DNA of 64,000 nucleotides. It comes from a virus (lineage: Duplodnaviria > Heunggongvirae > Uroviricota > Caudoviricetes). Location: the IMG/VR virus record IMGVR_UViG_3300035208_001992; one strand, 5' to 3'. The notes under the pieces were generated by a model that made no database searches, was not told where the DNA came from, and saw only the letters and a program-made list of their open reading frames with translations. Both the position numbers and the translations under genes were made by a program. This document shows positions 3,999-51,932 of the stretch, piece after piece; position 1 is the first letter of the stretch; each line of letters begins with the position of its first letter.

Positions 3999-5585
3999 TC
4001 AAGCTTCGAGGCCATTGTCGTCTGAAGCAACTGCAGCTGACTCTTCGCCGCCTGCAACGATCAAACGCGAAACAGACTCGCGCTCTAACTGGAACGCGTA
4101 GCCAGAACGGATCTGACGGAGGCAATGCATGTAGACAGCGCGCTTGTATTGCGGGCTCTCAACGAGTTCCTTGAACTGCGCGCGTGAGATGCGTTGACCT
4201 TCATCGAAGATCGGGTTGTCACGACCCTTTTCCTTGACTGGCCGCACATGCATGGTCATCGTGTTGCCACGCTGAAGCATCTGGCCAGTTGCTGTCAGGA
4301 ACGATGCGCAATCCCAGCTTTCGCAGATGCCATCACCGGGAGATCCGTCCTTGAGGAAGCGGATACGGAATGTCGATTCACGGAACGGAGCGAAGGCTTT
4401 GTTCTTCGTGTTCTGGATCTTGGCATACACAAAGCGGTCGACACCGCCATTGAGGCCAGGCTCTTCAGAATACTTCGCGCCAGCGCCAGACGGCACACCA
4501 GCTGTATTTGGACTTACGCGCATGATGCGCGTACGGTTGTCGGAATAGAACTTGAGCGCCTCGCCACCTGGTTCGTATGTTGGATCGCCCATACGCACGC
4601 CAGGATTGAGTCGCAACTGGTTAGTCGAGAACAGCAAGCAGTTCTTCTGGCTGAGTAATGACTTCACAAGCTTGATGTTGTCAGAGAACATGCGTGCCTG
4701 GACTGCCATTGGGCTCTTATCCGGATTCTCGTCGATCGCCTCTGGCAGCAAAGCTGGCCATGAGTCAACGATGAACAGGTACTGCGGCTTGCCTTCACGC
4801 TCGTCCTCAACCCAGTCCTTCCTGGTCTTCGTGACGATCAGCTTCCACCAGTTGCCGTTCGAGTCTTGCCGAACAGTTGGAAGTAGCTTAAGCATACCGT
4901 GCATCGTATTGAAGACGCGTTCGCCAATTGAGTCATCTGAGTAACGAATGATTGGAGGAACGTCCCAACGCGCTTTGTTCTTCATGTCACGAATGCCGAG
5001 CAACTCGTTGAAGCGTAGCCCGAACTTCGAGAAGATCTTGCTGACGTAGTCAGGCGACAACGCGCCTTCGGCGTCGAACCAGTAGATTGGCGTGCCTTGC
5101 AATACGCAAGTAGACGCGAGATAGTTGACAAGCGTCGATTTGCCTGATCCTTCACGACCTGGCGTGATCGTGAAGCGCCGAGGTGCTACGCCACCGCCGC
5201 ATACGAAGTCATACATCAAGCAGCCAGACGCGATCGCGTTCTGGACGAACGATGCCGTGCTGAGCGTTGACGTTGAGATTCCGGTATGGGCTTCGACCTT
5301 GTCGACCAATGAGCTGAATTCAGCAAAAGCAGCAGATGTCAAGATCGCTGGAATCTTCACAAGACCAGTGCGTGAAGCGGTGATCACTGCTGGTGCGTGT
5401 TCGACATCGATAGCGTCGACTTCTGATTCAATTGCACGCTGTGACTTCGCAGGCTTTGCAATAGGCCGTTCATTCACGGTCGCTTCAACCTTGCGCGAGC
5501 GACCAGTGCTGTCTGAGACAGCTGCTGGTGCTTTGGCAGGCTTCATTGGTCTGGCTGGACGGGTCGGTGGCGCAGTTGTCGGCAT
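3999..5585 (-). CDS. RecA/UvsX-like recombinase with Pro/Ala-rich N-terminal extension
   Basis: Walker A GREGSGKST. The block FIVDSWPALLPE...QARMFSDNIKLVKSLLSQKNCLLFSTNQLRLNPGV parallels RecA IVVDSVAAL...QARLMSQALRKL...LIFINQIR. The first ~100 aa are low-complexity PTRPARPMKPAKAPA. Confidence 0.75.
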   Translation of the reverse strand: MPTTAPPTRPARPMKPAKAPAAVSDSTGRSRKVEATVNERPIAKPAKSQRAIESEVDAIDVEHAPAVITASRTGLVKIPAILTSAAFAEFSSLVDKVEAHTGISTSTLSTASFVQNAIASGCLMYDFVCGGGVAPRRFTITPGREGSGKSTLVNYLASTCVLQGTPIYWFDAEGALSPDYVSKIFSKFGLRFNELLGIRDMKNKARWDVPPIIRYSDDSIGERVFNTMHGMLKLLPTVRQDSNGNWWKLIVTKTRKDWVEDEREGKPQYLFIVDSWPALLPEAIDENPDKSPMAVQARMFSDNIKLVKSLLSQKNCLLFSTNQLRLNPGVRMGDPTYEPGGEALKFYSDNRTRIMRVSPNTAGVPSGAGAKYSEEPGLNGGVDRFVYAKIQNTKNKAFAPFRESTFRIRFLKDGSPGDGICESWDCASFLTATGQMLQRGNTMTMHVRPVKEKGRDNPIFDEGQRISRAQFKELVESPQYKRAVYMHCLRQIRSGYAFQLERESVSRLIVAGGEESAAVASDDNGLEA

Positions 5586-8000: not shown

Positions 8001-8740
8001 CCGATGACACCGCCAGTGCGATCCAGCGTGCCGTCGAGAAGAAGAGGGTACTTCTTCTGCGTCAAGTCGCGGATCATCTCGTCGGCGTCGCCAGGAACGT
8101 ACACGGATGCGAAGTCTGTGGCCTCGGACTTGACGATCTGGTACTGCTCGCGAGTGAGACGAACAGGCTGGCCGTATTCAACGATCCAGGTCTCTTGCCC
8201 GGCGTTAGGCGTGTACGTGACATAGACCGAATAGCCGTCAGCCGGATGCCAGATGTTGCCACCGTAGCGCTTGATGATGCGACCGAGCTTCTTGTTGACG
8301 CCCTTGGGCATCATGAACGGCACGAGAGACTTCGACCACTCACGCAGTGCAGGCTGAGCTGCCGACGGGATGCGGAAGAAGACGTCGACCAATGCGCAAC
8401 GCTCAGGCCAACCAAGGTACTCGGAATAAGTCGAGCAGAATGGGCAGCTTTCGACGTTCGTCTGGCCGTTAGCGTGGTTGACGTCGGGGCACTCGAAGCC
8501 GACCTTTTTGGCCTTGCGAGCATCACCGTGCTTGGCTTTGAGTCCGTCTTGTCCTTCGTTCTTGAAGATCCAAGCGTCTTGGACGTCCAAGTACCACCAG
8601 TGACTCGCGATGTAGTACGGGTCCTTAGTGACGATGCGAACTTCGATTTCCTGCTGTGGGTACTGTGACGGCTGCAGCATCTGAATCTGCTGATACCACT
8701 TGATACGTGCTTGGCCTTGGCCAAATCCATCCCATGACAT
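7562..8740 (-). CDS. Zn-binding protein with long disordered Pro/Ala/Arg/Asp-rich C-terminal tail; possible gp32-like ssDNA-binding protein
   Basis: SD AGGAGAACGAAAT precedes the ATG. The globular N-half carries a His+3Cys cluster (ECPDVNHANGQTNVESCPFC) like the T4 gp32 Zn site, and KKLGRIIKRYGGNIW resembles gp32 FKYRFGKKIWDKI. The C-half (nt 7562-8000) is 70% GC and encodes DDDLPLDDDGG...PPAANRRP...ARRAAPPPQAAARRPAAPPP. Confidence 0.4.
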   Translation of the reverse strand: MSWDGFGQGQARIKWYQQIQMLQPSQYPQQEIEVRIVTKDPYYIASHWWYLDVQDAWIFKNEGQDGLKAKHGDARKAKKVGFECPDVNHANGQTNVESCPFCSTYSEYLGWPERCALVDVFFRIPSAAQPALREWSKSLVPFMMPKGVNKKLGRIIKRYGGNIWHPADGYSVYVTYTPNAGQETWIVEYGQPVRLTREQYQIVKSEATDFASVYVPGDADEMIRDLTQKKYPLLLDGTLDRTGGVIGGGNARAQPGRGAAAAPARGQARSQTLLDDGGDDELGLDDDLPPTPARRGAAPAASRRAAPAPSYDDDLPLDDDGGDLPLEPEDGDGFEVDLDDPPLPPQRRNAAPPPAANRRPMTAPPAAPARRAAPPPQAAARRPAAPPPRQSR

Positions 8741-37133: not shown

Positions 37134-37680
37134 ATCATCATCAAGATTGCGATCTAGGTTGTTCGCATCGGTGATGAAGTTCTTGAGATTGCGCAGATAG
37201 TCACGTAGCTTGGCGTTGTCTATGTCGTTTCCTTATCTGTAAATGTTGCCGAACCAAGTTACCACATTCAGCTGTCCTGTTTCGCGGCTGTTAAGGCCCA
37301 GGAGTTTTGCTCGTGTCTCTGAATCGCCTTTGAGACTCAAGCTTGAAACGTGCGGCGATCACGTTAGATTACGAGTGGCGCTGCTGCGTTTTGCAACAAG
37401 CTTATGTCTTGGACGTATGGCCGTGAGGCCAAGGTAAAGTATCCCGCAAGGGACCACTCAATAGAAGTGCGCGCTCCAAGCACTGGAACAAGAACGCGCT
37501 GCTAGTTCATCCTGCGATCAGCAATGCAGGATCAATGCCTTGGCAAGGCATGACTGCATCTACTGGCAACGTTGAGTCTCACCTGCTGAAACCCAACTGA
37601 ATGTATGCATACTAACGTAAGAACTGGCAGTGTTGTCTCACGTACGTAAACTAGGTTTGCTCCGCTTACCGAGCGGCATG

Positions 37681-38001
37681 TTATAGATATTGGTTGATCA
37701 TGCTTTCGATCTTGTCCTTGGGCAAAACACCGATGAGCTGATTCACCACTTCGCCGTTCTTGAACATGAGCAATGTTGGGATAGAACGGACACCGAACTT
37801 GGCAGCGATGTTCTCGTTGCCGTCGGTATTGAGCTTGCAGATTTTGACTTTGCCGTCATATTGAGCGGACAAAGCTTCGATAGCCGGATTCAGCATCTTG
37901 CAAGGACCGCACCATGGAGCCCAAAAGTCAACCATGACAAGATCTGTGCTTTTGATGACGTCGTCGAATGATTCTGCTGTCAGCACAATAATGTTGCTCA
38001 T
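37681..38001 (-). CDS. trx: thioredoxin
   Basis: WAPWCGPCK active site. Start set at MSNIIVLTAESFDD behind a GGAG SD, which gives a canonical ~106-aa thioredoxin. Confidence 0.85.
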   Translation of the reverse strand: MSNIIVLTAESFDDVIKSTDLVMVDFWAPWCGPCKMLNPAIEALSAQYDGKVKICKLNTDGNENIAAKFGVRSIPTLLMFKNGEVVNQLIGVLPKDKIESMINQYL

Positions 38002-38207
38002 GAGAACTCCGTTGAAGATTTTGGTTGACCAAGTCGCCACGTCAACCTGCTGGATGTTACTGGCGTCTCTATGCTTTATCGGTATGCCCCACACGCCGAC
38101 AAGCATTTCCAGGTTTTCAAGAGCCTGCTAAGCAAGCTCTTGCGTTCGCTGCGCAACAACGAATGCCCCAACGACACCCAACCCCAACGCAGCGAAACAT
38201 TCCCTGA

Positions 38208-38279
38208 CGGATTCGAACCGCCGCGTGCGCTATGAGATAGCGCCGTCCTGACCTCTAGACGAAGGGAACAAAGTGTTGC
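38208..38279 (-). tRNA. tRNA-Glu-like (CTC), divergent copy
   Basis: Begins GTTCCCTTCGTCTAGAGGTCAGGAC like tRNA-Glu. The anticodon loop ATCTCAT is unusual and the T-stem has one mismatch. Confidence 0.5.
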
Positions 38280-38612
38280 CGACCAAAGCTTAGTACATCG
38301 ACATGCTGGAGATCAAAACTGCCCTACTTCTGACGTTGCGCAACATCAGGTATCGGACTCCAGGTTTTTCGCGAAAGCGCACCAGAGCGACTAATAACGC
38401 GACATTCCCACGTTGAGGTTGCCTAAGCCTCATCTGCTTTCGCAGGTCTTGTGCCACTAAGCCATCCGGAACGTAAAGGTACTAGTCCAATCATCGCCCT
38501 TGTACTCGTATCCGGTAGACTAAAGCAGCGGCTCACGTTCGGCCTCGATCAGTGTGGTCAAATGGACATGCCCACCAATGTATCCGAGTTATGCATAAAC
38601 GAAACGTGGAAG

Positions 38613-38685
38613 CATTCCCTAGGGGAGTCGAACCCCTGCACCCGCCGTGAGAGGGCGGTGTCCTAGGCCACTAGACGAAGGGAAC
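38613..38685 (-). tRNA. tRNA-Glu (CTC)
   Basis: GTTCCCTTCGTCTAGTGGCCTAGGACACCGCC-CTCTCAC-GGCGG...GGGGTTCGACTCCCC, close to the E. coli tRNA-Glu backbone. An upstream CAATTTACAAAGTTTGC motif lies at 38711. Confidence 0.75.
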
Positions 38686-38750
38686 GTTGTGTGCCTTATC
38701 AGCACAAGATCAATTTACAAAGTTTGCATTGTTTACACTAGATTAACGCG

Positions 38751-39320
38751 CTAATATAGTCCAGTTTGAACTTGCCAAAAGTCTGGAACGCCATCGATCT
38801 CATCTCCGGCACGATTGAAGTACCACTCGTTGTATGTCTCTGGTTGAGCCACGTTTGTGTCAGCCTCACCCATGATGTCTTCGAATGATCGCTCTGTCTC
38901 AAGCTGTTCAGCAACTTTGCTGTCGTCAAACATTGTCTTCTGACGCTTGTCGAGTTCTTCCTTGATGAACAAGTGGAACCAGTAGGCACCACCACGAACG
39001 ATACCAGAGATTCGACCAAAGCCTGTCGTGAAGCCTGTGCAAGTTACCGCGAACGCTGCTGCGTAATCACTAACGTCACATTTGCCGTCCGGGAATTCTG
39101 CCATAAGCCCATTTAGCTTTATGCGCTCATCGTCAATGGCTTTGGCTTGCTCATGTGATGTCTTGATCAATTTGGAAGCCATGTCTTTGGCTGTTTCAAG
39201 ATCTGGCGCTTCGAACGCTGTGAACTTAGCGCCATCGAATTCTTTGCCAGTGTCGTTCTTGAAGTATTCCATGCCAATCGTCCAGATCACGATTTGGGTC
39301 CTTGATTTTGATCGAGCCAT
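38751..39320 (-). CDS. hypothetical protein
   Basis: 189-aa ORF. Confidence 0.45.
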   Translation of the reverse strand: MARSKSRTQIVIWTIGMEYFKNDTGKEFDGAKFTAFEAPDLETAKDMASKLIKTSHEQAKAIDDERIKLNGLMAEFPDGKCDVSDYAAAFAVTCTGFTTGFGRISGIVRGGAYWFHLFIKEELDKRQKTMFDDSKVAEQLETERSFEDIMGEADTNVAQPETYNEWYFNRAGDEIDGVPDFWQVQTGLY

Positions 39321-39499
39321 GCTTCATGATCGATCTTATGTTGGAAGTTGACGTACGACGATCGTGCTTTATCGAAGTCCCAGCATATCATCACTGTTAG
39401 TATAGCAACGCAAGCTGCTAGTCCAAGCAACACGAACAAAAGCGTCATGGTTGTGATCTCTGAACTTGCGGAAACTTGTACGTGGTCTCGATTGAGCAT
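39287..39499 (-). CDS. small membrane protein
   Basis: 70 aa with TM segment TLLFVLLGLAACVAILTVMICW. Confidence 0.35.
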   Translation of the reverse strand: MLNRDHVQVSASSEITTMTLLFVLLGLAACVAILTVMICWDFDKARSSYVNFQHKIDHEAWLDQNQGPKS

Positions 39500-39807
39500 T
39501 CCATTGGTGCGAGATCAGAGTTAATGGCACAAGTTGGTCCAGGATATATTGGGATGTCTCCTGGCACTGGACCTATTTGCCATGGCCATGTCCAAGGAAG
39601 CGTTGGAACAAATCGAGGTTGAGGCACTGGACTGAGTTGAGGCTCAAGCCAACGTTTCAACTCAACAAGAAGATCGAATGCTTCGGCATGCGTCAACGCG
39701 ACTATTTGATCTTTCACGCGTATCGACATCGTGAGACTCAACTTGTCATCGTTTGACATACGTTCTCCTAAATTGGTGATGCCGCCCAGCGGGATTTGAA
39801 CCCGCAA
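39445..39807 (-). CDS. hypothetical protein
   Basis: 120-aa ORF. Confidence 0.4.
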   Translation of the reverse strand: MRVQIPLGGITNLGERMSNDDKLSLTMSIRVKDQIVALTHAEAFDLLVELKRWLEPQLSPVPQPRFVPTLPWTWPWQIGPVPGDIPIYPGPTCAINSDLAPMECSIETTYKFPQVQRSQP

Positions 39808-39895
39808 CCACCTATGCGCTCACGAAACGCTGCAAGGCTCGCACTTGATCCGTGACTAACAAGGGTAGCTCTACCGTTGAGCTTATGGGCAACGT
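39781..39895 (-). tRNA. atypical ~112-nt tRNA-like gene (intron-containing tRNA, or pseudo-tRNA / other structured RNA)
   Basis: Clear 3-prime half GGTGGTTGCGGGTTCAAATCCCGCTGGGCGG. The 5-prime acceptor/D-arm-like stretch is TTGCCCATAAGCTCAACGGTAGAGC. About 40 extra nt lie where the anticodon arm should be. Confidence 0.35.
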
Positions 39896-41214
39896 GCGAT
39901 GCTTCACATTATTCACGTAAAGCTTCGCTGAAATTTGGGAGGCTCTCCATTGGAATGCTGGAGGCCGTCCCGCGACTGCATTGTACTGCATTTGATGACG
40001 AGCGCCTTTGCTCGGTTGGGCTGGAAGGGATTGCAGTCCTTCACCCTCATCTACCGTACAGCCGCTTGAGTTGGCGCGAGTCATTATCGTGGTTTATGAC
40101 CGCAAGTTCATCCCAGTTGATTAGCGAGATTTGGAGTAGTCACTGCTAAAGCCTAGTGCTCCTTAATGCACCGTGCCCAGTGTAGTTTATCCAAACACTT
40201 TGATCGTCTCGCGTCTCCGTCCTGCAACCAAGCAGAAACGTCTCACTGTGGACTGCGTCGGCAACTCCAGTGCGCAAGTTGCATTCTAAGATCTGTCCCG
40301 GATGACAGGTAAAAAGATCCAAGCATTGCTGCTCGAAATCACGCCCGACGCTTTAATCATGTTGGCATGGTATGACCACCCAAGTTAGTCTGACTATGTT
40401 TGCATTGCCAATGCAAACCGATCCAGCTGTATAATCACAATTGCCGCTGGACTGCCACGTGTTTCCACGCTGTCAGACGGTGTCACAAGCATCAATGCTG
40501 TGCCACCAACAATTGCGAACGCACAAACGCTGGCCTTGAAACAAGTATAGGCCAGTATGACGGTTCGTGTCTTTGCTCTGCACTGGATTCTGGCTTGAGC
40601 GCGCCAGTTTGGCTTAAAGCCGATTATGTGCGCGATGATTGTTTGCGAACTTGATGCAGACGTCATTTCCAGCTACTGCGTCAAGTGAGAACCTACTCAC
40701 GAATTACTCCAACCAGCTAGGATTCTCTTGTCCCGCAAACTCATGCCCATACATCACGCGTTGTGTAATGATAGCCAGGCAGCTCTGGTTGGTTCGCTTT
40801 CGAGAGTTATGTCAGCCACGAAGGTGTGGTGAGTCTCTCGGAAGATCAAAAGGGTGCGCGCGTTTTATCATGGTTTTACCGCGCGAATTCGCCACAGTTG
40901 ATTAGCCAAACATACTTGTGAGATCAATTGAACGCGTTTCGCGGCGTTCAGAGCTCAATCACAAGTTAGTCGATTGGTCTGGCATCTCCGGCTCGTGAAC
41001 AGCCGTCTCACTGATGGCCACGCAGGGCAACGAGACTATTCGTTGAATTCTCGACCAACAGCAACTTTGCAGCTACTGTCGTCAAGTGGTCAAGCAATTT
41101 GCAACTTCGGAAAGTACTCCAAGGCTGCTACGAGTTGCAACGTGTACTTACGTTCCAACTCCCTTGCTCAACTCATGCCCGAGCGCGTTGTGCGTCCGTA
41201 GACGCTCAAGTTAC

Positions 41215-41646
41215 TTAGCTTAGAACTTCAGGTTCGGTCCGATCTGGCAAACCCATATTGGTCACAATTTCGTTGTACTTCTCACGACACTCTTTGTACG
41301 CAATTGTACTTCGGAATCTGTCTTGCGACTTCGATCCGATGATCGTCACTTGCGCTATTAAGTAGCAAAGAAAGAAACCGAACAGCTTGCCGGCTCTCAA
41401 GTGCCGCCAAGCATTGTCCAGCGCATCTTGCATATGCTGGTCTTGAGAGCTAGAACTGCTTGCTCTCAATGTTAGTCTACCCTCAGCATCGAGTATCTCG
41501 TTTATGCGCTTGAGATACTTCGAATTGAAGCGGTGCCTATCCAGCTTTGACAAACGGAAGATGCATAGTGAGTACAACACTATTGTCTGAAAATCGTCCT
41601 TCGCGGCTTCCATGACAGACAACGTGTCTTTATACGAAGTTCCCAT
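41215..41646 (-). CDS. hypothetical protein
   Basis: Track ORF begins at GTG 41703; the more likely start is ATG 41646 (MGTSYKD), behind an AAGGA SD. Confidence 0.4.
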   Translation of the reverse strand: MGTSYKDTLSVMEAAKDDFQTIVLYSLCIFRLSKLDRHRFNSKYLKRINEILDAEGRLTLRASSSSSQDQHMQDALDNAWRHLRAGKLFGFFLCYLIAQVTIIGSKSQDRFRSTIAYKECREKYNEIVTNMGLPDRTEPEVLS

Positions 41647-41928
41647 GTTTGTCCTTGTAGAAAGCGAATTGGTGCAGTGCATCGTTATTGCAGTTTCTCG
41701 CACTGCTGCAGTTTGACCCAGTTGATTAGCAGGAACTAAAAGCTTCCTCGCGTTTAGCGCCCTGTCATCGACGCTAACTTACCTGCATCTCCGATTGTCG
41801 AGCAATCGTCTCACTGTGATTCGCGCTGGCACCGGCAGGATACCGATGTTGGCACTACAAGAACATGGTGGAAATTGTAGTGCTGCAACCTCACGCGTTT
41901 GAGCGCGGCTATTAACCAACGCTCAAAG

Positions 41929-42001
41929 AGCCACCAATAGGAGTCGAACCTACGACCGACTGATTACAAATCAGTTGCTCTACCAACTGAGCTACGGTGG
42001 C
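41929..42001 (-). tRNA. tRNA-Thr (TGT)
   Basis: GCCACCGTAGCTCAGTTGGTAGAGC; anticodon arm ACTGA-TTTGTAA-TCAGT. Confidence 0.7.
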
Positions 42002-42177
42002 ACTCAATACTACGAATTAAGGATATTGCTGATCGATCGATCTGATTTGACGAAAGCAACTGGAGACATCCCATAGATGAACCAGATCTTCAGCATCAAT
42101 GTTGGTGCAATGATCATCAGCAAGACGCGACCTAATGTTTTCATGATTGCCTCACTTTTCTGATTTACAAAGTTCAA

Positions 42178-42465
42178 TCACCAGACGATGGCAACAATAA
42201 TTACGGCAGCGATCGAAATGATCAATGACGAAAGTACAGTTGCAATCGCTTTACTGTCATTTTGGTTGTCGTATTCGCTTGCATCGATCGTTGAGATCGC
42301 GCAGTCAATGTCTTTTCGAGTTACTGCAACACCGGTCTCTTCATCGATACCAGCATCAGCCAAAGCGTCTTTGAACTCGATCCTGATTTTGTCGAGCTCT
42401 TCATCTGTTGGTTGCCATGCGTTGCTACCGACTGTGATGTGAATGATCGACCGTTGCTTGTGCAT
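42178..42465 (-). CDS. tail-anchored small membrane protein
   Basis: 95 aa; C-terminal TM segment LSSLIISIAAVIIVAIVW; upstream TCACAA motif. Confidence 0.45.
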   Translation of the reverse strand: MHKQRSIIHITVGSNAWQPTDEELDKIRIEFKDALADAGIDEETGVAVTRKDIDCAISTIDASEYDNQNDSKAIATVLSSLIISIAAVIIVAIVW

Positions 42466-42491
42466 AGCGTTCTCCTAGTGTGAGTTGTGAA

Positions 42492-42565
42492 TGGGCCTAC
42501 AGGGATTCGAACCCTGGACCAAGCGATTATGAGTCGCGTGCTCTAACCAGCTGAGCTATAGGCCC
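42492..42565 (-). tRNA. tRNA-Met/Ile2 (CAT), elongator-type
   Basis: GGGCCTATAGCTCAGCTGGTTAGAGC, anticodon loop CTCATAA, T-arm GGGTTCGAATCCC. Confidence 0.65.
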
Positions 42566-42570
42566 GGTAA

Positions 42571-43770
42571 TCAACGCCGCTTACGCTTGTGACGCGACAG
42601 CGATGCATACGGTGAAATCGGCTGATTTGCGCGAGCAAAGTCATTGTCGAGAAAGTCGACTGACTCATTGAGTTTGTTGGCGATGTATTCCTTAGCTTGA
42701 TCAATCGAGATCGCAACGACTTCTGCAACGATCGGGAACAGCGTCGTGACTGATGCTCGTGGATTGATTGCGTACACAGATTGATTGATGTGTTCATAGT
42801 CACCAATGGACGCTGACACAATGATTATCGACTTCTTTATGATCACGGTGAAGATGGCAGACGCCTTAGTCGCTGCGTTTTTGTTTGGAATGAGTGTTAG
42901 ATCAAGCCGCGTCGAAGATGACAGTTGATAGATTGAACGCGCCAAATTGAGATGCGAAGTACGCTTGTTCTTTCTCAAAGCGTTTAAGAAACGTGATGCA
43001 AGTTCATTCTGGATGTCTGGAGATTGCTCGTTGCCACTGTTGACAACCTGGTTCAACAGTAGATTCTCTCTGAAGTCATATAATCGATAATTGCGGCCTT
43101 CAGTCTTTGGCTCGAGATAGTAGCCATTGTAAAATAGCCAGTCAGCAAGCTTGATCAACTTGATATTGAATTTGTCAAGTTTTGACCAGACATATATCAT
43201 GGCTGCAGCAATGGCTGCGCACATAATCAACGAGATGACAAAAACTGCAAGCTTAGGGCCAAACGAAGCTAAACACAAGTGATCAGACACCCATATGCAA
43301 TTCATGACCAGGCCTATGATAGCGCCGATGACAATCACAATAGCTTGAGCAGTGCGATCAAGAACGATTTGCATAACGAAGCTGCCAATGAAGCGTCGAA
43401 GCAATCCTGCTTGCGCTGTTGGCATGTCACTTAGGAAGCGTTTGTCAATTGGAGTCTTTACGACCTTCTGCTTGATCTTAGGCTGGCTAGGTTGCCGCCT
43501 GAACGGCTTCAACCAGTTGATCGCAGCTAGCGCACTTGCAGCTATGACTACAATAGCGCATGTTGCAGCAAATGACGCGGCAACAACTGAGCGCATAATG
43601 AGCATCCAGATCACACTGTAGAATCGTCCAACGCTGTCGATCTGGTTAGTGCTGCATTGCGGCGCAACATAGTTTGTGCCTGGCAGTTTGTTCCAGACGA
43701 AAGCGCTTGCAACAGCTGCAATGACAGCCGCAGACCAAAGCACGCGCTTCTTGTATTTTGACATCGCCAT
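42571..43770 (-). CDS. polytopic membrane protein
   Basis: 399 aa with at least five hydrophobic helices; SD AGGAG and an upstream TTCCAATTCACAACTT motif. Confidence 0.5.
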   Translation of the reverse strand: MAMSKYKKRVLWSAAVIAAVASAFVWNKLPGTNYVAPQCSTNQIDSVGRFYSVIWMLIMRSVVAASFAATCAIVVIAASALAAINWLKPFRRQPSQPKIKQKVVKTPIDKRFLSDMPTAQAGLLRRFIGSFVMQIVLDRTAQAIVIVIGAIIGLVMNCIWVSDHLCLASFGPKLAVFVISLIMCAAIAAAMIYVWSKLDKFNIKLIKLADWLFYNGYYLEPKTEGRNYRLYDFRENLLLNQVVNSGNEQSPDIQNELASRFLNALRKNKRTSHLNLARSIYQLSSSTRLDLTLIPNKNAATKASAIFTVIIKKSIIIVSASIGDYEHINQSVYAINPRASVTTLFPIVAEVVAISIDQAKEYIANKLNESVDFLDNDFARANQPISPYASLSRHKRKRR

Positions 43771-43802
43771 TTCGATTCTCCTAAGTTGTGAATTGGAAGC
43801 AA

Positions 43803-43876
43803 TTGAGACGAGTGGACTCGAACCACCGGCCTTCTCCTTATCAGAGAGACGCTCTAACCAACTGAGCTACATCTCA
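43803..43876 (-). tRNA. tRNA-Ile (GAT)
   Basis: Anticodon arm TCTCT-CTGATAA-GGAGA; D-arm TAGCTCAGTTGGTTAGAGC. Confidence 0.7.
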
Positions 43877-43882
43877 GTACAT

Positions 43883-43954
43883 GGGGCGGACGGGACTTGA
43901 ACCCGTGACCCGCGGCTTAAAAGGCCGCTGCTCTACCAACTGAGCTACCACCTC
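43883..43954 (-). tRNA. tRNA-Lys (TTT)
   Basis: Anticodon arm GCGGC-CTTTTAA-GCCGC; T-arm GGGTTCAAGTCCC; one A-C mismatch in the acceptor stem. Confidence 0.65.
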
Positions 43955-43964
43955 GAAAATTAAG

Positions 43965-44047
43965 TGCGAGAGAAGGGAGTCGAACCCTCAGTGCCTTGCG
44001 GCGCCAGATCCTAAGTCTGGTGCGTCTGCCAGTTCCGCCACTCTCGC
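43965..44047 (-). tRNA. tRNA-Leu (TAG)
   Basis: Acceptor GCGAGAG/CTCTCGC; anticodon arm CCAGA-CTTAGGA-TCTGG; long variable arm. Confidence 0.75.
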
Positions 44048-44052
44048 AGAGG

Positions 44053-44472
44053 CTAAGCTCTGATGATCTGTGCACCAACGATGTTTGATGGAACCAGATC
44101 TTTGTGCATGTTAGACCATGGATTGCTCTGTCCATCAGGCTTGTAAGGATTGCGAACCAAAGGAGCAATTTCCCAGACGTCTCCATCTTGTGTCTGCTTC
44201 ACATATGCAACGTCGTAATTGTAGTTCCCAATTGCGTGTGCAATGAACGGAATCTTTCCGGTAGTCCAAGCGTCGATGCGCTCAATCAACTGCTCAAGCG
44301 ATTCTGCAGCACCAATCAGAGATACGAATTGCTCTCTGTGATCAATCGCGTTGGCGGGAATCCAGAACAGGCCAGCAACGGCCGCGTCATAAAGTGACAT
44401 CGTTGGAAAGGCATTGATTGCAATGCCTGGCATCAAATGATGCCCGAGCTTGATTATCGTTGGTTTGTACAT
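44053..44472 (-). CDS. hypothetical protein
   Basis: 139-aa ORF. Confidence 0.45.
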   Translation of the reverse strand: MYKPTIIKLGHHLMPGIAINAFPTMSLYDAAVAGLFWIPANAIDHREQFVSLIGAAESLEQLIERIDAWTTGKIPFIAHAIGNYNYDVAYVKQTQDGDVWEIAPLVRNPYKPDGQSNPWSNMHKDLVPSNIVGAQIIRA

Positions 44473-44480
44473 GACTTGTC

Positions 44481-44732
44481 CTATTGAACTGGTTCGAGAT
44501 ATGCGTTAGTGTATCCGACGTAACTTTCTTTGTCACCTGCAAACGCTACGCGATATTCGTCCCAGCCATTGCGTTCATTGTAGCCATGATACACGCAATG
44601 CATTGGTATCTGGAGATTGACAGCGTGCTGCACGTCAGTCAACGAACTGATCTCAGAAGCTTGCGCCATTGACGCTTTAGTCATTGTAGCGCGTGGTCTA
44701 AATAGGATCGGCATCTTCGCAAGCCTTTTCAT
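44481..44732 (-). CDS. hypothetical protein
   Basis: 83-aa ORF. Confidence 0.35.
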   Translation of the reverse strand: MKRLAKMPILFRPRATMTKASMAQASEISSLTDVQHAVNLQIPMHCVYHGYNERNGWDEYRVAFAGDKESYVGYTNAYLEPVQ

Positions 44733-45177
44733 TTACTTGTGCACAAAGCTCTTCCATTTCACGCTTGAACTGCTCAACGTCCATGCCTTCTGGCTTGTCA
44801 ATCGAGAAATTGATTGTCTTCAGCGCTGTCACTGTATGCAATGCATACGTAAACGAGTACTCGCGGTCACCAGTTTGCTTAACAGATATGTTTGTTGCTC
44901 CAGCGCGAGCTAACGCATGCTCGTGAGCAACAAGAAGCTGCTTCAAGTATTCTGGTTCGCAGAGCTGCTTGAAGATGTGATTACGTAATGCGTCGCGAGT
45001 CCTATCAAGGATTGCTGCAACGTACAATGCACTCCGCTTGAGCTTTTTCTTCTTCTTACGCGGGATTTTCACCGGTGTGTTGCGTGATGCGTACTTGCAG
45101 AGTGAACGATGCAACGCTTGTTCGAACGGCTTAGTCTTAAGCGTCATGCTGTCATACATGATGATGTCTTCAGACAT
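44698..45177 (-). CDS. hypothetical basic protein
   Basis: 159 aa with a KIPRKKKKKLKR basic patch. Confidence 0.45.
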   Translation of the reverse strand: MSEDIIMYDSMTLKTKPFEQALHRSLCKYASRNTPVKIPRKKKKKLKRSALYVAAILDRTRDALRNHIFKQLCEPEYLKQLLVAHEHALARAGATNISVKQTGDREYSFTYALHTVTALKTINFSIDKPEGMDVEQFKREMEELCAQVNEKACEDADPI

Positions 45178-45498
45178 TCAAGTTCTCCTCTGCTTGGAAT
45201 TATCAACCGGACGGTGAATGAGACGACCGGAATTTCCTGACAGCGCGAACGCTGCTCTCACTCGCCTAGGCCTTCTCGTCAGTACATTCAGTCAGGCTTT
45301 GGCAATCAGGTTCAGCCGACAGAGTTGTCACGTATTCGACAGGGTTTACCACTCCCCTGTTGGCGTCGAACCGCATTGACCATCGACCGAGCTTCTATCA
45401 GGTCCGATGCCTCTCGCTGGAACAAGAAGTGGCCGGGCCCAATAGCTCAACTGCTAGCATTCTACTGCTAACAGACCGCATCGCAAGTGCGTCGTTTA

Positions 45499-45750
45499 TT
45501 ACTCGTATTCATGCATCCAAAAGATCGTATCGTCGTGTAGTGCTTCGACCTTCTCTTTGAAAGATCGTGTTTGCCAGCGGCTGTCATTGACTTTGTCGAG
45601 ACAGACGCCTCCGTCATAGTTCGGATGTGACTCGCGAAGCATGCTCTTGACTGCGCTGAACACCTTTTCGTCTTCAGTACGGTTGTCAACTACTGTCATA
45701 TCGGGCTTGCGACGTTGCAAGCGCGACAGATCAATGGTATGCGCGGTCAC
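45499..45750 (-). CDS. hypothetical protein
   Basis: 83-aa ORF. Confidence 0.35.
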   Translation of the reverse strand: MTAHTIDLSRLQRRKPDMTVVDNRTEDEKVFSAVKSMLRESHPNYDGGVCLDKVNDSRWQTRSFKEKVEALHDDTIFWMHEYE

Positions 45751-46226
45751 TTTGAAATCCGCTTGCCGATCACAGTCAACTTCATTTCACCGAGTGATCC
45801 CTTCATGAACAGGCTGCCAGAGCGGAATTCATCGACTAGGTGATCACCGACATTGATGTTCTTATAGAATGCTGCATCGACTGGAATCTCGAATGTGAAC
45901 GCGTTCATCGCGTCTTTGGCATGCTCACTAATGCTGAGTGAGAAGTGAGATTGCTTACCCTCAATCTGGAGAACGTAACGGACGTTGCCTGATTGCAGAG
46001 CTTCGAGATAGTCTGCAGTACTGTCAAGTTCAGATTGCTGACGTTGGATATTTCCTGTCTTGAGCTGCAACGCGCTGAGCATGCTGCGCTCATTTGACAA
46101 CTGCATCTGAATGACGTTGCGTTCTCGCTTGAGCGACCCGATGTCTTCTTTGATGTCGCATGCGTTTTGGCATGCATTCAGTGCGAGCACGATGATGATG
46201 GCTATGGCAGTGATGATTTTGTTCAT
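45747..46226 (-). CDS. lipoprotein with coiled-coil periplasmic domain (spanin-like?)
   Basis: Signal peptide MNKIITAIAIIIVLALNAC with a lipobox LALNAC, then a heptad-rich segment (RERNVIQMQLSNERSMLSALQLK). Confidence 0.5.
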   Translation of the reverse strand: MNKIITAIAIIIVLALNACQNACDIKEDIGSLKRERNVIQMQLSNERSMLSALQLKTGNIQRQQSELDSTADYLEALQSGNVRYVLQIEGKQSHFSLSISEHAKDAMNAFTFEIPVDAAFYKNINVGDHLVDEFRSGSLFMKGSLGEMKLTVIGKRISK

Positions 46227-46673
46227 GGCGTTAGCATCCAGACGATTAGGATTATGACTAGGACAATGACTAGGACAATGCTAGCAAGTGTGTATGCTCC
46301 ACGTGGAGAGTACGGATCAGGCTTCTTTTGCTGGCTAGCAGCTTTCAAGAGCGCGTCCAAATCTCCAAGCGGATCTTCCAGTGCTGGCACGAACTTGACA
46401 AAGAATGGATCTTGCCAACCGCGCGGAAAATCGTGTGGCACTTTGAATGTTGCTTTATTCGGTGAACCATAGAATGTTTTGTCACCAGAATAAAACGCAT
46501 CTGGCGTGAATTCAGCGAAGCCACCGTCACGCCGCATTGTCATTAAGCCAAGCGGCGCGTTGATATACAAAAGCAAACCGTCGGCGTCACCATGTCCTGC
46601 TAGCGTGCCTTGTTTGAAAAAAATGATCAATCACCGCATTGGTTTGCGTGAATGTCATTGGCGTGTATGTCAT
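46223..46673 (-). CDS. tail-anchored membrane protein, reading frame split by a T7 run (frameshift or sequencing indel)
   Basis: The conserved upstream motif plus AAGGA SD point to ATG 46673 (MTYTPMTFTQTNAVIDHF...). That frame stops at 46587. The long ORF (to 46223) continues in the adjacent frame from the TTTTTTT run at 46617-46623. C-terminal TM segment LASIVLVIVLVIILIVWML. Confidence 0.4.
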
Positions 46674-46976
46674 TGCGTAATCCTTGAATTGTGAATTGAA
46701 AGAGCGCGTCCTGCAGTTGCCGCTGTACGTTGTATCGGGTCAATGTGGCGAAACCTACTTGTCCTCTTTCGAGGCATTACCCATTCAGTTAGCTCGCCGT
46801 TGACAATTTTAGTCATTGCAGGCACGAAGCGCAAGAGGATCATACAGACTTGTTCGACGGTTGATAGTCGAGCCTTCGAGCGTTATCACATAGTCTTGTG
46901 GACTTGCTGTACTCGTGGGGTATCTTGCGTTTTCTGTCATACGCGTCGAAACTTTCGTCTCGAACGCGCTCTTAAG

Positions 46977-47048
46977 TTGGGGCGGCAGGATTCGAACCTA
47001 CGAATGCCGGGACCAAAACCCGGTGTCTTACCGCTTGACGACGCCCCA
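46977..47048 (-). tRNA. tRNA-Gln (TTG)
   Basis: TGGGGCGTCGTCAAGCGGTAAGAC, anticodon arm CCGGG-TTTTGGT-CCCGG. U1-A72 as in enterobacterial tRNA-Gln. Confidence 0.7.
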
Positions 47049-47309
47049 ATAAACGATTGCTACGATTGCTCTGCTAGCATCCGTTGAATTCTTGCGCTCT
47101 CTAACGTGATGCCTTCTTCCTTGTATAAGTGCTCGTTCTCTGCCATTGGAGGAATGAAGTGCTCTCCGATCGCTGGAATTGAGCTGCACACTGGAAAATA
47201 TGCGTGCCACAACGGAGGAAAAGATCCAAGACCAGGAATGAAAGAAACGTCTTTCACTATGTCATTCTCATCTGTTAGCACGAACATATGAAATGTCTTT
47301 CAGCTAAAT

Positions 47310-47393
47310 TGGGAAACGGAGACAGGAGGATTCGAACCTCCGGTACCTTTCGGTACAGACATTTAGCAAACGCCCGCTTTAGACCGCTCAGCC
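47310..47393 (-). tRNA. tRNA-Ser (GCT)
   Basis: Acceptor GGAGACA/TGTCTCC, anticodon loop TTGCTAA, long variable arm, T-arm GGAGGTTCGAATCCTCC. Confidence 0.7.
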
Positions 47394-47815
47394 ATGTCTC
47401 CAAAACTCTATCTGCTTTTACTCTTGCTGTCAAAGCCTCCGCCAAGCATGACTAGTCGCTCGTCTGACGTGATCGGCGAATGGTCTAAGCAGACGCCATC
47501 AGCATCTATGTCAACAGTCGCGTCATGCTGTACACCACAATGCTTTTCTTGATTGTGATGTATGCAATCTTTTGCGCGACACGCAATTGCAGGCATTGAC
47601 TAGCTCCTTGATTGGAAAATCTCTATGCAGGGTTTGCGCGAGTCACCTGCGTTCCCGAGACTTAAAAGAAGTACGTCTTCACGCGTACCTCAATGCTCGT
47701 GTCCTATCTTTGTCTCGCAAGCCGGACTGAGCGCGAGACTGAGCATTCAGCAACGCTAACTATCCGTAGTGCGTGCCTTTGTGGATTTCAACCCACTTGG
47801 ATGAATAGAGAAAAG

Positions 47816-47897
47816 CGGAGGGACTCGGACTCGAACCGAGAAGCCCTTGCGGGCGGCGGTTTTCAAGACCGCTGACTTACCATTGGCCTACCCCTCC
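47816..47897 (-). tRNA. tRNA-Ser (TGA)
   Basis: Acceptor GGAGGGG/TCCCTCC, anticodon arm GCGGT-CTTGAAA-ACCGC, long variable arm. Confidence 0.65.
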
Positions 47898-49994: not shown

Positions 49995-50423
49995 TTAGAG
50001 GATTGCGTGTGGATCTGAGTTGTATTCTGGAACAAGTATGCCAAGTTCTGTCTCGAACCAACGAGCTGACAGACATCGATGGCAAAAGTCTCCTGGCTTT
50101 TCATAGCATAGCAGTATCGCGTTCTCACCGAGCTCTTCGAAGACTTGTTGTGGATCGAGATGCTTGAGAACGTGCTCATAGAACTCTACAGTGTACTTGT
50201 TAGAGTCTCCGGTGCGTTTGTAGTCATCGAAGAACCAGCGCTTTGGCGCTAGTTTCTTGTATTGCCTGCCAGTCCACCAAGGCGGAGGCCAACCAGCAAT
50301 ACTTACTGCATCTGGATGCTTGCCGCAAGTTGCGTAGTTGCTAGTCTGCATGGCCAATGACCAAAGAATGACCAGGCATAGCCATAGTGAAATTTCCGTA
50401 TTCGCCTTTTCGTGCTTTACCAC
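49995..50423 (-). CDS. DUF488-like protein
   Basis: LLCYEKPGDFCHRCLSARWFE (the CHR motif of DUF488). The 5-prime end overlaps the upstream gene, so the true start is probably the internal Met at 50351. Confidence 0.4.
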   Translation of the reverse strand: MVKHEKANTEISLWLCLVILWSLAMQTSNYATCGKHPDAVSIAGWPPPWWTGRQYKKLAPKRWFFDDYKRTGDSNKYTVEFYEHVLKHLDPQQVFEELGENAILLCYEKPGDFCHRCLSARWFETELGILVPEYNSDPHAIL

Positions 50424-51186
50424 TGTGGTGACACAATATGGTCTTTGATTGCCAGTCAGCAGGGTATGTTAGCAAATCGACTAAGCGAGCGTGGACGCGT
50501 GACGTTGTCTCATAGTCGGCGCAATCATGAAACACCTTATCTGCGTAAGCATAGATCGGTTCCATGAGCAACGAATTGAATTGGCAATCACTCGTGAAGA
50601 AGATTGACTTGCCAGCATACGTTAGCATGTAGCCGTATGTGATGCCAATGTCTCTTGGGTTTTGAGCGTCATCTACTTGCCGAATGTGCGGCAGCTTGTA
50701 GTAAGCTACTTGGAACGATATTCCGTTGAGCTCAATCGTTGTTGGCTCACGTCCTTTGAATGCGAATGGCAAGCATTGCGTGAATCCGAAGTAGTCGATC
50801 AACTGCAGATCAGCGTCTTCAATTGGGCCCATTGACGGTTGGAAAACTCCGTTTAGCGTGTTGTAGACGCTGTTAGTCGCAGACGGACGCAGAGGCTCGA
50901 TGATCAATGGCTTGCGCGACGCCTTCGACACAAACCTGTTGTAGAAGCCAAGCCATTCCAAACCATGGATATGATCACCATGGAAATGAGTGAAGAGAAC
51001 CGCATCTACATCGGCCGCAGAAATGCCAATACCTTGCAAACTATGTCTAGCGTCAGGCGAACAATCAACAAGAATTGTCACCTTCTTGGCATCATCTGTC
51101 AGCGTCACAACTGGCTGATTGTTCCATAGCCTTGAATCAGCAAATGCTCCGCCAACCCCAGCAAAACTAACAGTCAGCTGTTTCAC
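50341..51186 (-). CDS. metallo-beta-lactamase-fold hydrolase
   Basis: FTHFHGDHIHGL (HxHxDH) and downstream His/Asp ligands. Confidence 0.65.
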   Translation of the reverse strand: MKQLTVSFAGVGGAFADSRLWNNQPVVTLTDDAKKVTILVDCSPDARHSLQGIGISAADVDAVLFTHFHGDHIHGLEWLGFYNRFVSKASRKPLIIEPLRPSATNSVYNTLNGVFQPSMGPIEDADLQLIDYFGFTQCLPFAFKGREPTTIELNGISFQVAYYKLPHIRQVDDAQNPRDIGITYGYMLTYAGKSIFFTSDCQFNSLLMEPIYAYADKVFHDCADYETTSRVHARLVDLLTYPADWQSKTILCHHSGKARKGEYGNFTMAMPGHSLVIGHAD

Positions 51187-51932
51187 GCTGTGGCACCTTT
51201 CACGAGATTGCCAAGCGTCTTTGGATCAGCGTTGGCGACGAACACGGCAAGCTTCCTTGCTGTCTTGTATTGTGCGACAGCATCGTAGAGCGGATGATGC
51301 GGCGTGTTTGGGTTGAAGTCGTCATGATCTTGCCCGAAGATGTCAGACATCTGACGAATGTCCAAACTGAAGTAGCACCAGTTGTCTGGCATATTGCGCA
51401 TGCCGCCAAACAAGTTAGCAAGACACACGTGATCATGCGCGTTGTAATCGCCCCAAGGCCTGACTGTCGTTTCACCTGCAGGGCTTGCAGCAGAGACGAC
51501 CTTGAGCAAAGCTTCTTTGATCTCATCAGGTGTTCCGACAACAACTGTCGGTACCGGCTTTGAAACAGGCTTCTGATCTTCTGCGTGAATCGAGAACTTG
51601 CGGCCATGAGCAATAGCCAAGCGCGCGTCGCTGATGCTGACGGTCTTAGCGCCGACGCGACAAATGATGTGCTTGAACACGTTTTCAAACATCCACGTGT
51701 TGTTAGACTTCTCGCTCAACTTACCTTCATCATTGACCATGTCTAGGAAGACGTCGCTGTTGAAGAAGTCATTGTTGATTCCGTAGAACAGGCTTCGCTT
51801 CTTTGGACCGTCAATGACAGCACCGATGCTAATCACATGGAGTCCATTTAGCCCACAGTCAACGAACTCGAAATCGTGGTGGATGTCAATTGTTGACGCT
51901 TGATCTTTCTGCGACAGCTTAAAGATGCTCAT
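51183..51932 (-). CDS. DEDDh-type 3-prime to 5-prime exonuclease-like protein
   Basis: C-terminal HHPLYDAVAQYKTARKL (Exo III H-x4-D motif); N-terminal DFEFVD and ISIGAV. Confidence 0.45.
   Translation of the reverse strand: MSIFKLSQKDQASTIDIHHDFEFVDCGLNGLHVISIGAVIDGPKKRSLFYGINNDFFNSDVFLDMVNDEGKLSEKSNNTWMFENVFKHIICRVGAKTVSISDARLAIAHGRKFSIHAEDQKPVSKPVPTVVVGTPDEIKEALLKVVSAASPAGETTVRPWGDYNAHDHVCLANLFGGMRNMPDNWCYFSLDIRQMSDIFGQDHDDFNPNTPHHPLYDAVAQYKTARKLAVFVANADPKTLGNLVKGATA

Follow-up and report, generated by a model that had tools for sequence, protein, structure and literature searches.

A tRNA-derived element lacking an anticodon arm in the tRNA island of a T4-type jumbo phage

Can a tRNA gene that appears to carry a large insertion in place of its anticodon arm still yield a decoding tRNA, perhaps by splicing, and if it cannot, what is it? 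We addressed this question for one such sequence in the IMG/VR virus record IMGVR_UViG_3300035208_001992, working with a 64,000-nucleotide (nt) stretch (the window, to which all coordinates below refer unless a locus is named) out of a genome of ~243-306 kb. An earlier note had described here an atypical tRNA-like gene of 112 nt at 39781-39895, its anticodon region enlarged by an insertion of ~40 nt, and had offered three options: a tRNA with an intron (anticodon TGT or TAG), a regulatory RNA derived from a tRNA, or a pseudogene in decay. We find that the element is tRNA-derived, with a lesion at the anticodon arm, and that it is a broken or repurposed tRNA copy for which decoding is almost certainly impossible. 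The intron is not borne out; the other two options survive, and the evidence cannot separate them.

The tRNA-derived sequence lies on the minus strand and runs from 39892 to 39781, which is 112 nt in the 7-base-pair (bp) acceptor register and 113 nt when the preceding G (G-1) is counted. The limit given earlier, 39895, takes in two to three bases 5' of the acceptor stem. The parts of the element, as read from the sequence, from the Rfam alignment and from the minimum free energy (MFE) fold, are as follows.

39781-39893, minus strand: whole tRNA-like element; RF00005 match of 27.4 bits over model positions 1-71, MFE cloverleaf, no ARAGORN call
39886-39893, minus strand: 5' acceptor strand UUGCCCA (39892-39886), with G-1 before it (39893); 7/7 pairs with UGGGCGG
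39883-39885, minus strand: connector U8-A9 plus one extra A (UAA); the Rfam alignment has one inserted base between positions 9 and 10
39868-39882, minus strand: D-arm GCUC-AACGGUA-GAGC, read from the sequence; high posterior probability in the Rfam alignment
39867, minus strand: U26, read from the sequence
39807-39866, minus strand: irregular arm of 60 nt in the MFE fold, replacing a 17-nt anticodon arm; terminal loop GCC, without a 7-nt anticodon loop
39789-39806, minus strand: U48 (39806) and T-arm GCGGG-UUCAAAU-CCCGC (39805-39789); 5/5 stem and canonical T-loop
39781-39788, minus strand: 3' acceptor strand UGGGCGG (39788-39782) and C73 (39781); CCA not encoded, trailer AUCACC

Outside the irregular arm, every part of a tRNA is in place. 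The acceptor stem has 7 bp, including U1.G72 and U2.G71, or 8 bp counting G-1:C73; the D-arm is canonical, with 4/4 D-stem pairs and with A14, A15, G18, G19 and A21 all there; and the tertiary-core bases are complete (U8, A14, A15:U48, G18G19, U12-A23 with A9, G53-C61, and T54/A58 in UUCAAAU). The T-arm is 94% identical to that of the phage tRNA-Leu(UAA). The sequence that follows C73 in the RNA sense is AUCACCAAUUUAGGAGAACGUAUG. The earlier description of a 5' end resembling an acceptor strand and D-arm, and of a 3' half made up of a T-arm and acceptor strand, stands. The sequence quoted for it is present on the minus strand, a strand that had been left unstated, and its 'CTACCC' takes the final D-stem C a second time, the correct division being GAGC-TACCC. 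The insertion was also sized correctly: 62 nt separate the D-stem from the T-stem, versus 22-23 in a class I tRNA, which leaves ~40 nt extra. As this interval holds no anticodon stem-loop, the element almost certainly cannot decode.

The Rfam tRNA model (RF00005) aligns to the element end to end at 27.4 bits, against a gathering threshold of 29, and makes a 53-nt local skip precisely at the anticodon arm. When 501 nt, 5 kb and 16.5 kb were searched, the E-values, quoted after multiplication by 4,227 families, were 0.0013, 0.013 and 0.044, respectively. By comparison, the real tRNAs of the window (n = 16) score 48-74 bits on the same model, and the element is the sole sub-threshold tRNA match within the tRNA island at 34969-47897. 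The full element folds as a cloverleaf at -46.2 kcal/mol (z = -2.6; 1/200 shuffles equally good), in which the MFE structure shows an 8-bp acceptor and a 5-bp T-stem. ARAGORN at default stringency, with or without its intron mode, made no call at the element. As to tRNA membership, the element has the acceptor, D-arm and T-arm of a tRNA, and lacks the anticodon arm and a score at the gathering level. Both the sub-gathering score and the silence of ARAGORN would be expected if the resemblance to a tRNA were due to chance and there were no tRNA origin. Against this stand the end-to-end covariance model match with its corrected E-values and the presence, inside a tRNA island, of a 17-nt perfect T-arm, a 15-nt D-arm and a 7-8-bp acceptor in the correct order and spacing. 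Chance, to which we assign next to no probability, is in practice refuted.

Folded alone, the inserted arm reaches -17.9 kcal/mol versus -15.5 +/- 2.7 for shuffles (z = -0.9), and its inner 47 nt are still closer to the shuffled mean (z = -0.2); the arm is only as stable as shuffles and is not a selected hairpin. A search for a second copy of the arm within the window found none, and so there is no sign of a miniature inverted-repeat transposable element (MITE) or of a duplication.

If the extra sequence were an intron, removal of a 40-44-nt intervening sequence would have to restore a decoding tRNA, for example Thr-UGU. Some features invite this reading: the segments CUACC...GGUGG can be paired, taking out 44 nt at 37/38 leaves a loop CUUGUUA with C32, U33 and A38, and short introns at the same position are known in other viral tRNA arrays, such as that of the probable eukaryotic giant virus L134 (see below). 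However, the parse CUACC/CUUGUUA/GGUGG, which the earlier note implies, uses C25 twice. This shrinks the D-stem to 3 bp and the variable loop to 2 nt, with N26 lost, and ARAGORN accepts the Thr-UGU product solely at <=90% of its default threshold. With the D-stem kept intact, the flanks ACCCU... and ...AUAGG/UAGGU form no 5-bp stem, and at default stringency ARAGORN in intron mode (-i) is blank.

To cover all possible excisions, every segment between the D-arm and the T-arm was deleted in silico (910 variants) and the products were passed to ARAGORN at rising stringency. None of the 910 equalled any of the 16 real tRNAs: 0/910 passed at 110% of the threshold and 19/910 at 105%, while in the control set of real tRNAs 16/16 passed at 110% and 15/16 at 115-120%. 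In 16 of these 19 variants the D-arm and a weak internal hairpin flank the cut, with Cys-GCA or Thr-CGU as the outcome; in three, all Thr-AGU, the cut falls within the anticodon region and position 37 is C. A canonical splice is not among them. For scale, 132 other distinct sequences from public data share the D-arm and T-arm at a distance of 40-70 nt; ARAGORN interprets 127 of these, and the element is one of two full-length sequences that it cannot interpret.

Known intron classes fit no better. Protein-spliced tRNA introns of archaea and eukaryotes are closed by the anticodon stem and usually lie at 37/38; a permissive scan for bulge-helix-bulge motifs returned many weak candidates, none of them placed to restore the anticodon arm, a result without weight on its own. 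Group I introns are inserted in the anticodon loop and have a catalytic core (P3-P9) that typically takes at least 200 nt, for which an insert of ~40-44 nt is far too short. The group I model RF00028 has no match in the window at gathering or E-value thresholds, and the same model finds one in the related phage L127. Among the 40 open reading frames (ORFs) of the window that were scanned with Pfam or PHROGs, a subset of all its ORFs, no tRNA-splicing endonuclease or RtcB was found. The genome is moreover that of a bacterial T4-type phage, and a normal tRNA-Thr(UGU) of 70.1 bits is already present at 42001-41928. We found no plausible splice, whether to a TGT or a TAG anticodon, and the intron idea, which we regard as very unlikely, is to be dropped.

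A tRNA of unusual shape that functions without splicing would be a class-II-like tRNA-Cys(GCA) with the internal hairpin CGAGCC-UUGCAGC-GUUUCG for an anticodon arm, or a 90-nt alternative cloverleaf. At relaxed stringency ARAGORN does propose a 90-nt tRNA-Cys(GCA), whose loop UUGCAGC has U33 and a purine at 37, and tRNA-Cys is missing from the 16 tRNAs of the window. In this arrangement the anticodon stem contains a mismatch, the acceptor has an A-C mismatch and the D-arm (UAGU/AGUG) is very poor, while the competing 112-nt fold is much better; the call appears only below the default ARAGORN threshold, and the matching excisions reach no higher than 105%. We hold this too to be very unlikely. 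For annotation, the locus should not be counted among the phage tRNAs or among 'intron-containing tRNA' calls.

Established classes of unusual tRNA and tRNA-like RNA were also tried and rejected. tRNA-Sec has 8/5 geometry, a 6-bp D-stem, a 4-nt D-loop and a UCA anticodon arm, and allo-tRNAs have a 12-bp acceptor domain (8/4 or 9/3) and a normal anticodon arm; both carry a long variable arm. An 8/5 reading of the element is possible, yet its D-arm has 4-5 bp with a 7-nt loop, its UCA is outside a loop context and RF00005 outscored the tRNA-Sec model. Unlike allo-tRNAs, the element shows 7/5 (or 8/5) geometry and lacks an anticodon arm, and its 61 nt exceed the length of an anticodon arm and variable arm together. 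The hallmarks of tmRNA are a tRNA-like domain without a D-stem, pseudoknots and an ORF for the tag peptide; ARAGORN (-m) finds no tmRNA, and the element has 112 nt, a canonical D-arm and no tag ORF. The Infernal search against Rfam that the earlier note had suggested gave RF00005 as the best match, below threshold as reported above. The non-tRNA family YrlA reached 13.5 bits versus a gathering score of 69, with a match offset from the element and no Ro-binding stem, and YrlA is permuted, with its T-arm before its D-arm, while the element has the normal order.

The element is inside an island of 16 tRNA genes, all on the same strand (34969-47897), and is followed at close range by a protein-coding gene.

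39445-39769, minus strand: downstream gene of 104 codons, with AGGAG at 39769-39765 and ATG at 39759; called as a gene in the source contig

This gene begins 21 nt after the element and has a good Shine-Dalgarno sequence; homologues of it were found in the same phage and nowhere beyond, and the neighbouring proteins are ORFans. CCA is encoded in 0/16 of the real tRNAs and a (C)UU trailer follows 13/16, which together suggest endonucleolytic 3' processing and CCA addition for the phage tRNAs. The trailer of the element, AUCACC, departs from this usual form.

We think it probable that the element is a non-decoding relic of a tRNA, that is, a young pseudogene, or else a processing 'punctuation' RNA. 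As a feature it is real, though ordinary in kind: an aberrant copy of a tRNA gene within the island of a phage. This copy would have had its anticodon arm replaced or disrupted by ~40 extra nt, while the acceptor/T-arm minihelix, the D-arm and the tertiary core (the 'top half' and elbow) were retained. The element directly adjoins tRNAs and small ORFs and shares their orientation; it is therefore probably part of the same polycistronic precursor, and transcription together with the flanking genes and tRNAs is the most likely mode of expression. Of a tRNA, RNase P and the enzymes of 3'-end maturation require no more than the half made up of acceptor and T-arm. This half is intact here, so a cut by RNase P at the 5' end and by host 3'-processing enzymes at the other would be expected to excise the element. 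The product may then be a useless by-product of ~112 nt, as for a young pseudogene, or the excision may act as a punctuation mark, with the cut setting an mRNA 5' end just before the ribosome-binding site of the gene 21 nt downstream; a dedicated function is probably absent. As to origin, the insert could have arisen by repair after cleavage by a homing endonuclease. There is an HNH gene in the island, and in T4 the homing endonuclease SegB targets a T-arm motif (PMC2330249). The locus shows that T4-type phage tRNA islands carrying homing endonuclease genes generate broken or repurposed tRNA copies.

Several observations sit uneasily with a relic. All arms outside the insert are flawless, which is not expected of an old pseudogene and implies that the lesion is recent or that the top half is under selection, and the score is merely 1.6 bits under the Rfam cut-off. 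In addition, neither the scans of viral, metagenome and genome sequences nor the related phages yielded a homologue. On IMG/VR, DNA patterns taken from the element, both exact and gapped, retrieved just unrelated tRNAs sharing its T-arm. A pattern joining the D-arm and T-arm, run on Joint Genome Institute (JGI) metagenomes (40-70-nt gap) and Genome Taxonomy Database (GTDB) genomes (48-70-nt gap), found no relative of the element, its hits being archaeal intron tRNAs, allo-tRNA-like genes, tandem half-plus-full tRNAs and a few bacterial tRNA-like genes with hairpin inserts. Related phages were reached through the flotillin gene 7 kb from the element (56-66% identity); in these the region is missing, or tRNA islands lie in the same place without a sub-threshold tRNA-like match. 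Without homologues, neither conservation and selection nor decay can be demonstrated by comparison, and as far as seen the element appears lineage-specific. Finally, two other assemblies of the same phage are 100% identical to the window where compared, but the comparison ends ~150 nt before the element, and these assemblies therefore say nothing on its constraint.

The intact outer arms raise the question of whether the RNA is instead a dedicated, trans-acting tRNA mimic without an anticodon, its L-shaped top half kept on purpose. It could accept an amino acid, or it could act as a sponge or decoy that draws off host factors binding tRNA (RNase P, the CCA-adding enzyme, anticodon nucleases and other defences that target tRNAs). 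In spite of the lesion, its acceptor, D-arm, T-arm and tertiary core are perfect, the MFE fold has its 8-bp acceptor and 5-bp T-stem, and in T4 the tRNA cluster retains two stable non-tRNA RNAs. Among 17 elements compared, a G:C at -1:73 occurs elsewhere only in the phage tRNA-His. The identity recognized by HisRS rests on G-1:C73, the major histidine element in bacteria, and is effective without the anticodon. Two genes in Verrucomicrobiota metagenome-assembled genomes (MAGs), L144 and L146, likewise have a long hairpin in place of the anticodon loop, together with G3.U70, A73 and CCA. However, the 60-nt arm of the element is no stabler than shuffles, unlike the Verrucomicrobiota arms (z = -5.1 and -3.0), and no homologue or covariation was found in the searches described above. 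The pairs U1.G72 and U2.G71 make for a weaker acceptor end, chance alone gives a G:C at -1:73 once in 16, and the 3' trailer is unlike that of functional tRNAs. On balance, a dedicated mimic seems to us unlikely. Its most specific form, a purposeful jumbo-phage RNA with 8/5 geometry and G-1:C73 that is excised by RNase P, CCA-tailed and possibly histidylated, serving as a decoy or as a non-ribosomal aminoacyl carrier, we consider improbable. If it were true, this mimic would join the tRNA-Ala-like genes L144 and L146 as a sign that bacteria and phages have a class, so far unrecognised, of tRNA-like RNAs without an anticodon.

The closest documented analogues of the element are the species 1 RNA (rnaC, 139 nt) and species 2 RNA (rnaD, 119 nt) of phage T4. 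To our knowledge, the function of these two RNAs is still unknown. Like them, the element is a small non-tRNA gene inside a T4-type tRNA cluster, co-oriented with the tRNAs. The last 93 nt of T4 rnaC form an acceptor-like stem and a perfect T-arm, CCGGG-UUCGAAU-CCCGG, without an anticodon arm. T4 rnaC is less tRNA-like, with 17.5 bits on the tRNA-Sec model only and without a canonical D-arm, while the element reaches 27.4 bits on the general tRNA model. We noticed no sequence similarity between the element and T4 rnaC or rnaD, and the likeness is one of kind rather than a demonstrated homology; the T4 species are also experimentally known stable RNAs. Co-transcription has a precedent in T4, where a single precursor of ~1.75 kb gives rise to eight tRNAs, to the segB mRNA and to the species I and II RNAs (PMC2330249). 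Were the element a stable processed RNA, it would bring a second lineage to a puzzle that the species 1 and 2 RNAs of T4 have posed for 50 years, and a cleaner, more tRNA-like test case for the role of such RNAs.

Other comparisons are looser. Xanthomonas phage XacN1 has 29 tRNA-like sequences per repeat, of which one is a pseudogene (PMC5852040), and the element resembles it as a sub-threshold tRNA-like sequence among the many functional tRNAs of a large phage. Unlike the tRNA pseudogenes of jumbo phages, however, it has one discrete lesion of ~40 nt with the other arms intact and no scattered decay. The irregular and allo-tRNA-like sequences from soil metagenomes reported by Mukai et al. 2017 share with the element a non-canonical acceptor/T geometry, a G at -1 and extra bases in the acceptor-D connector, and are described as uncertain in function and not chargeable in tests (reviewed in PMC7609411). 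A tRNA-like acceptor and T-arm (and elbow) that is seen by RNase P and other tRNA enzymes without an anticodon is described for the tRNA-like domain of tmRNA and for bacterial YrlA (PMC3985003, PMC4201824). YrlA differs from the element in its arm order, as noted above. The mascRNA of MALAT1 is likewise an anticodon-less tRNA-like processing signal.

The D-arm/T-arm searches also brought up other tRNA-like genes. Chromosomal genes of ~100-120 nt are found in two Verrucomicrobiota (L144 4327-4407 and L146 1936-2014) and in Saprospiraceae (L145 3054-3151). L144, L146 and L145 have a canonical acceptor, D-arm and T-arm and an encoded CCA, with a hairpin for the anticodon loop (z = -5.1, -3.0 and -3.4, respectively), and their neighbours are ordinary genes (SDR, LysR, IS1 transposase). 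L144 and L146 have the alanine identity G3.U70 and A73, yet no Ala anticodon. The D-arm of these two Verrucomicrobiota genes is identical to that of the element, and they share its layout at ~100 nt; they differ in having a 4-5-bp stem that closes the insert, a near-perfect long hairpin, G3.U70, A73 and the encoded CCA, all of which the element is without.

Further long or composite tRNAs occur in viral contigs. A phage contig with a tmRNA gene (L001, IMGVR_UViG_3300036770_007267) has at 8294-8431 a 138-nt tRNA with a perfect anticodon stem AGCGG/CCGCU around a 64-nt insert that holds the T-arm-like UUGGGUUCAAAUCCCAA; it looks like a tRNA fragment nested in a tRNA. In L134 (IMGVR_UViG_3300017963_000032; 989-1213 and 2298-2429), probably a eukaryotic giant virus, an array of 13 tRNAs with 3-5-nt spacers includes a tRNA-Ile and a tRNA-Arg with introns of 37 and 36 nt at the canonical position, both ending ...CGAAGAG, and a tRNA-Trp with an intron of 61 nt. 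At a further set of loci (L009, L010, L024, L058, L059, L080, L149 and L166), a 5' tRNA fragment lies directly upstream of a complete tRNA, often Thr-UGU; the fused fragment consists of the acceptor strand, the D-arm and part of the anticodon stem, and is recurrent in metagenomes and MAGs. Also abundant at metagenome loci (for example, L016, L021, L056, L077 and L106) are class-II-like tRNAs in which a UAU anticodon is combined with a long variable arm and an encoded CCA; in these features they resemble the allo-tRNA(UAU)-like group (PMC7609411).

The gene content of the window includes a UvsX-like recombinase, a clamp loader, a gp46/47-like nuclease, a T4 beta-glucosyltransferase domain and an HNH endonuclease, as well as a HicB-like protein and an Apyc1/MBL-fold protein. 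The best GenBank phage protein matches are to Straboviridae at ~30% identity, and INPHARED holds no nucleotide match; on its gene content, we class this jumbo phage as a distant T4-type bacteriophage. The window derives from a 243-kb metagenome contig (ENA ERZ27247350), and the same proteins are found in a 305,891-bp JGI contig. Genes at 50341-51932, 2.4-4 kb past the upstream end of the tRNA island, code for the MBL-fold protein (Apyc1/Lactamase_B_2), which has the RNase Z fold, and for a 3'-5' exoribonuclease-like protein (Rv2179c-like). Within the island, two diverged tRNA-Glu(CUC) paralogues lie on the minus strand at 38197-38270 and 38612-38685, 415 nt apart. The first of these was missed in the whole-window gathering scan, probably lost to speed filters, but scores 48.8 bits in region scans, and is the weakest of the 16 tRNAs by ARAGORN.

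Related phages show tRNA-associated features of their own. In the related jumbo phage L127 (Logan SRR30681675), a group I intron (RF00028, 58.4 bits) at 4388-4841 overlaps an HNH gene beside tRNA-Leu(UAA). Inside the tRNA island of L127, a 62-nt segment at 2160-2221 matches positions 1090-1152 of bacterial 23S rRNA (26.8 bits, E = 2.6e-4) and could mimic that rRNA stretch. L127 also has a class-II-like tRNA-Thr(UGU) of 83 nt at 2931-3013, and L126 has an unusually long tRNA-His(GUG), likewise of 83 nt, at 703-785. Thg1-like 3'-5' nucleotidyltransferases are encoded by L125, L126 and L140.

Immediately upstream of the element, ~1.3 kb of the minus strand (39894-41214) is without a gene call. 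A recoded gene does not account for this gap, in which all three stop codons are present in all three frames. In and beside the stretch we identified a structured repeat of ~150 nt in three diverged copies.

40095-40262, minus strand: structured repeat, copy in the 1.3-kb stretch
40876-41027, minus strand: structured repeat, copy in the 1.3-kb stretch
41700-41830, minus strand: structured repeat, copy beside the 1.3-kb stretch

Copy A lies ~200 nt upstream of the tRNA-like element, and copy C directly after tRNA-Thr. The copies share the invariant motifs CAGUGAGACG...CGGAGAYGC...GCUAAUCAACUG...AAAC..AUAA, and in a closing helix and an internal hairpin pairing is kept through two-sided changes across the three covarying copies. 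The repeat has no Rfam match, and a covariance model built on it found no further copies in the window or in related phages; the sole IMG/VR pattern match, L136, is in a coding region and looks like chance. The repeat could be a repeated small RNA or a repeated promoter or leader, and in our view the 1.3-kb stretch that bears it is more unusual than the tRNA-like element.

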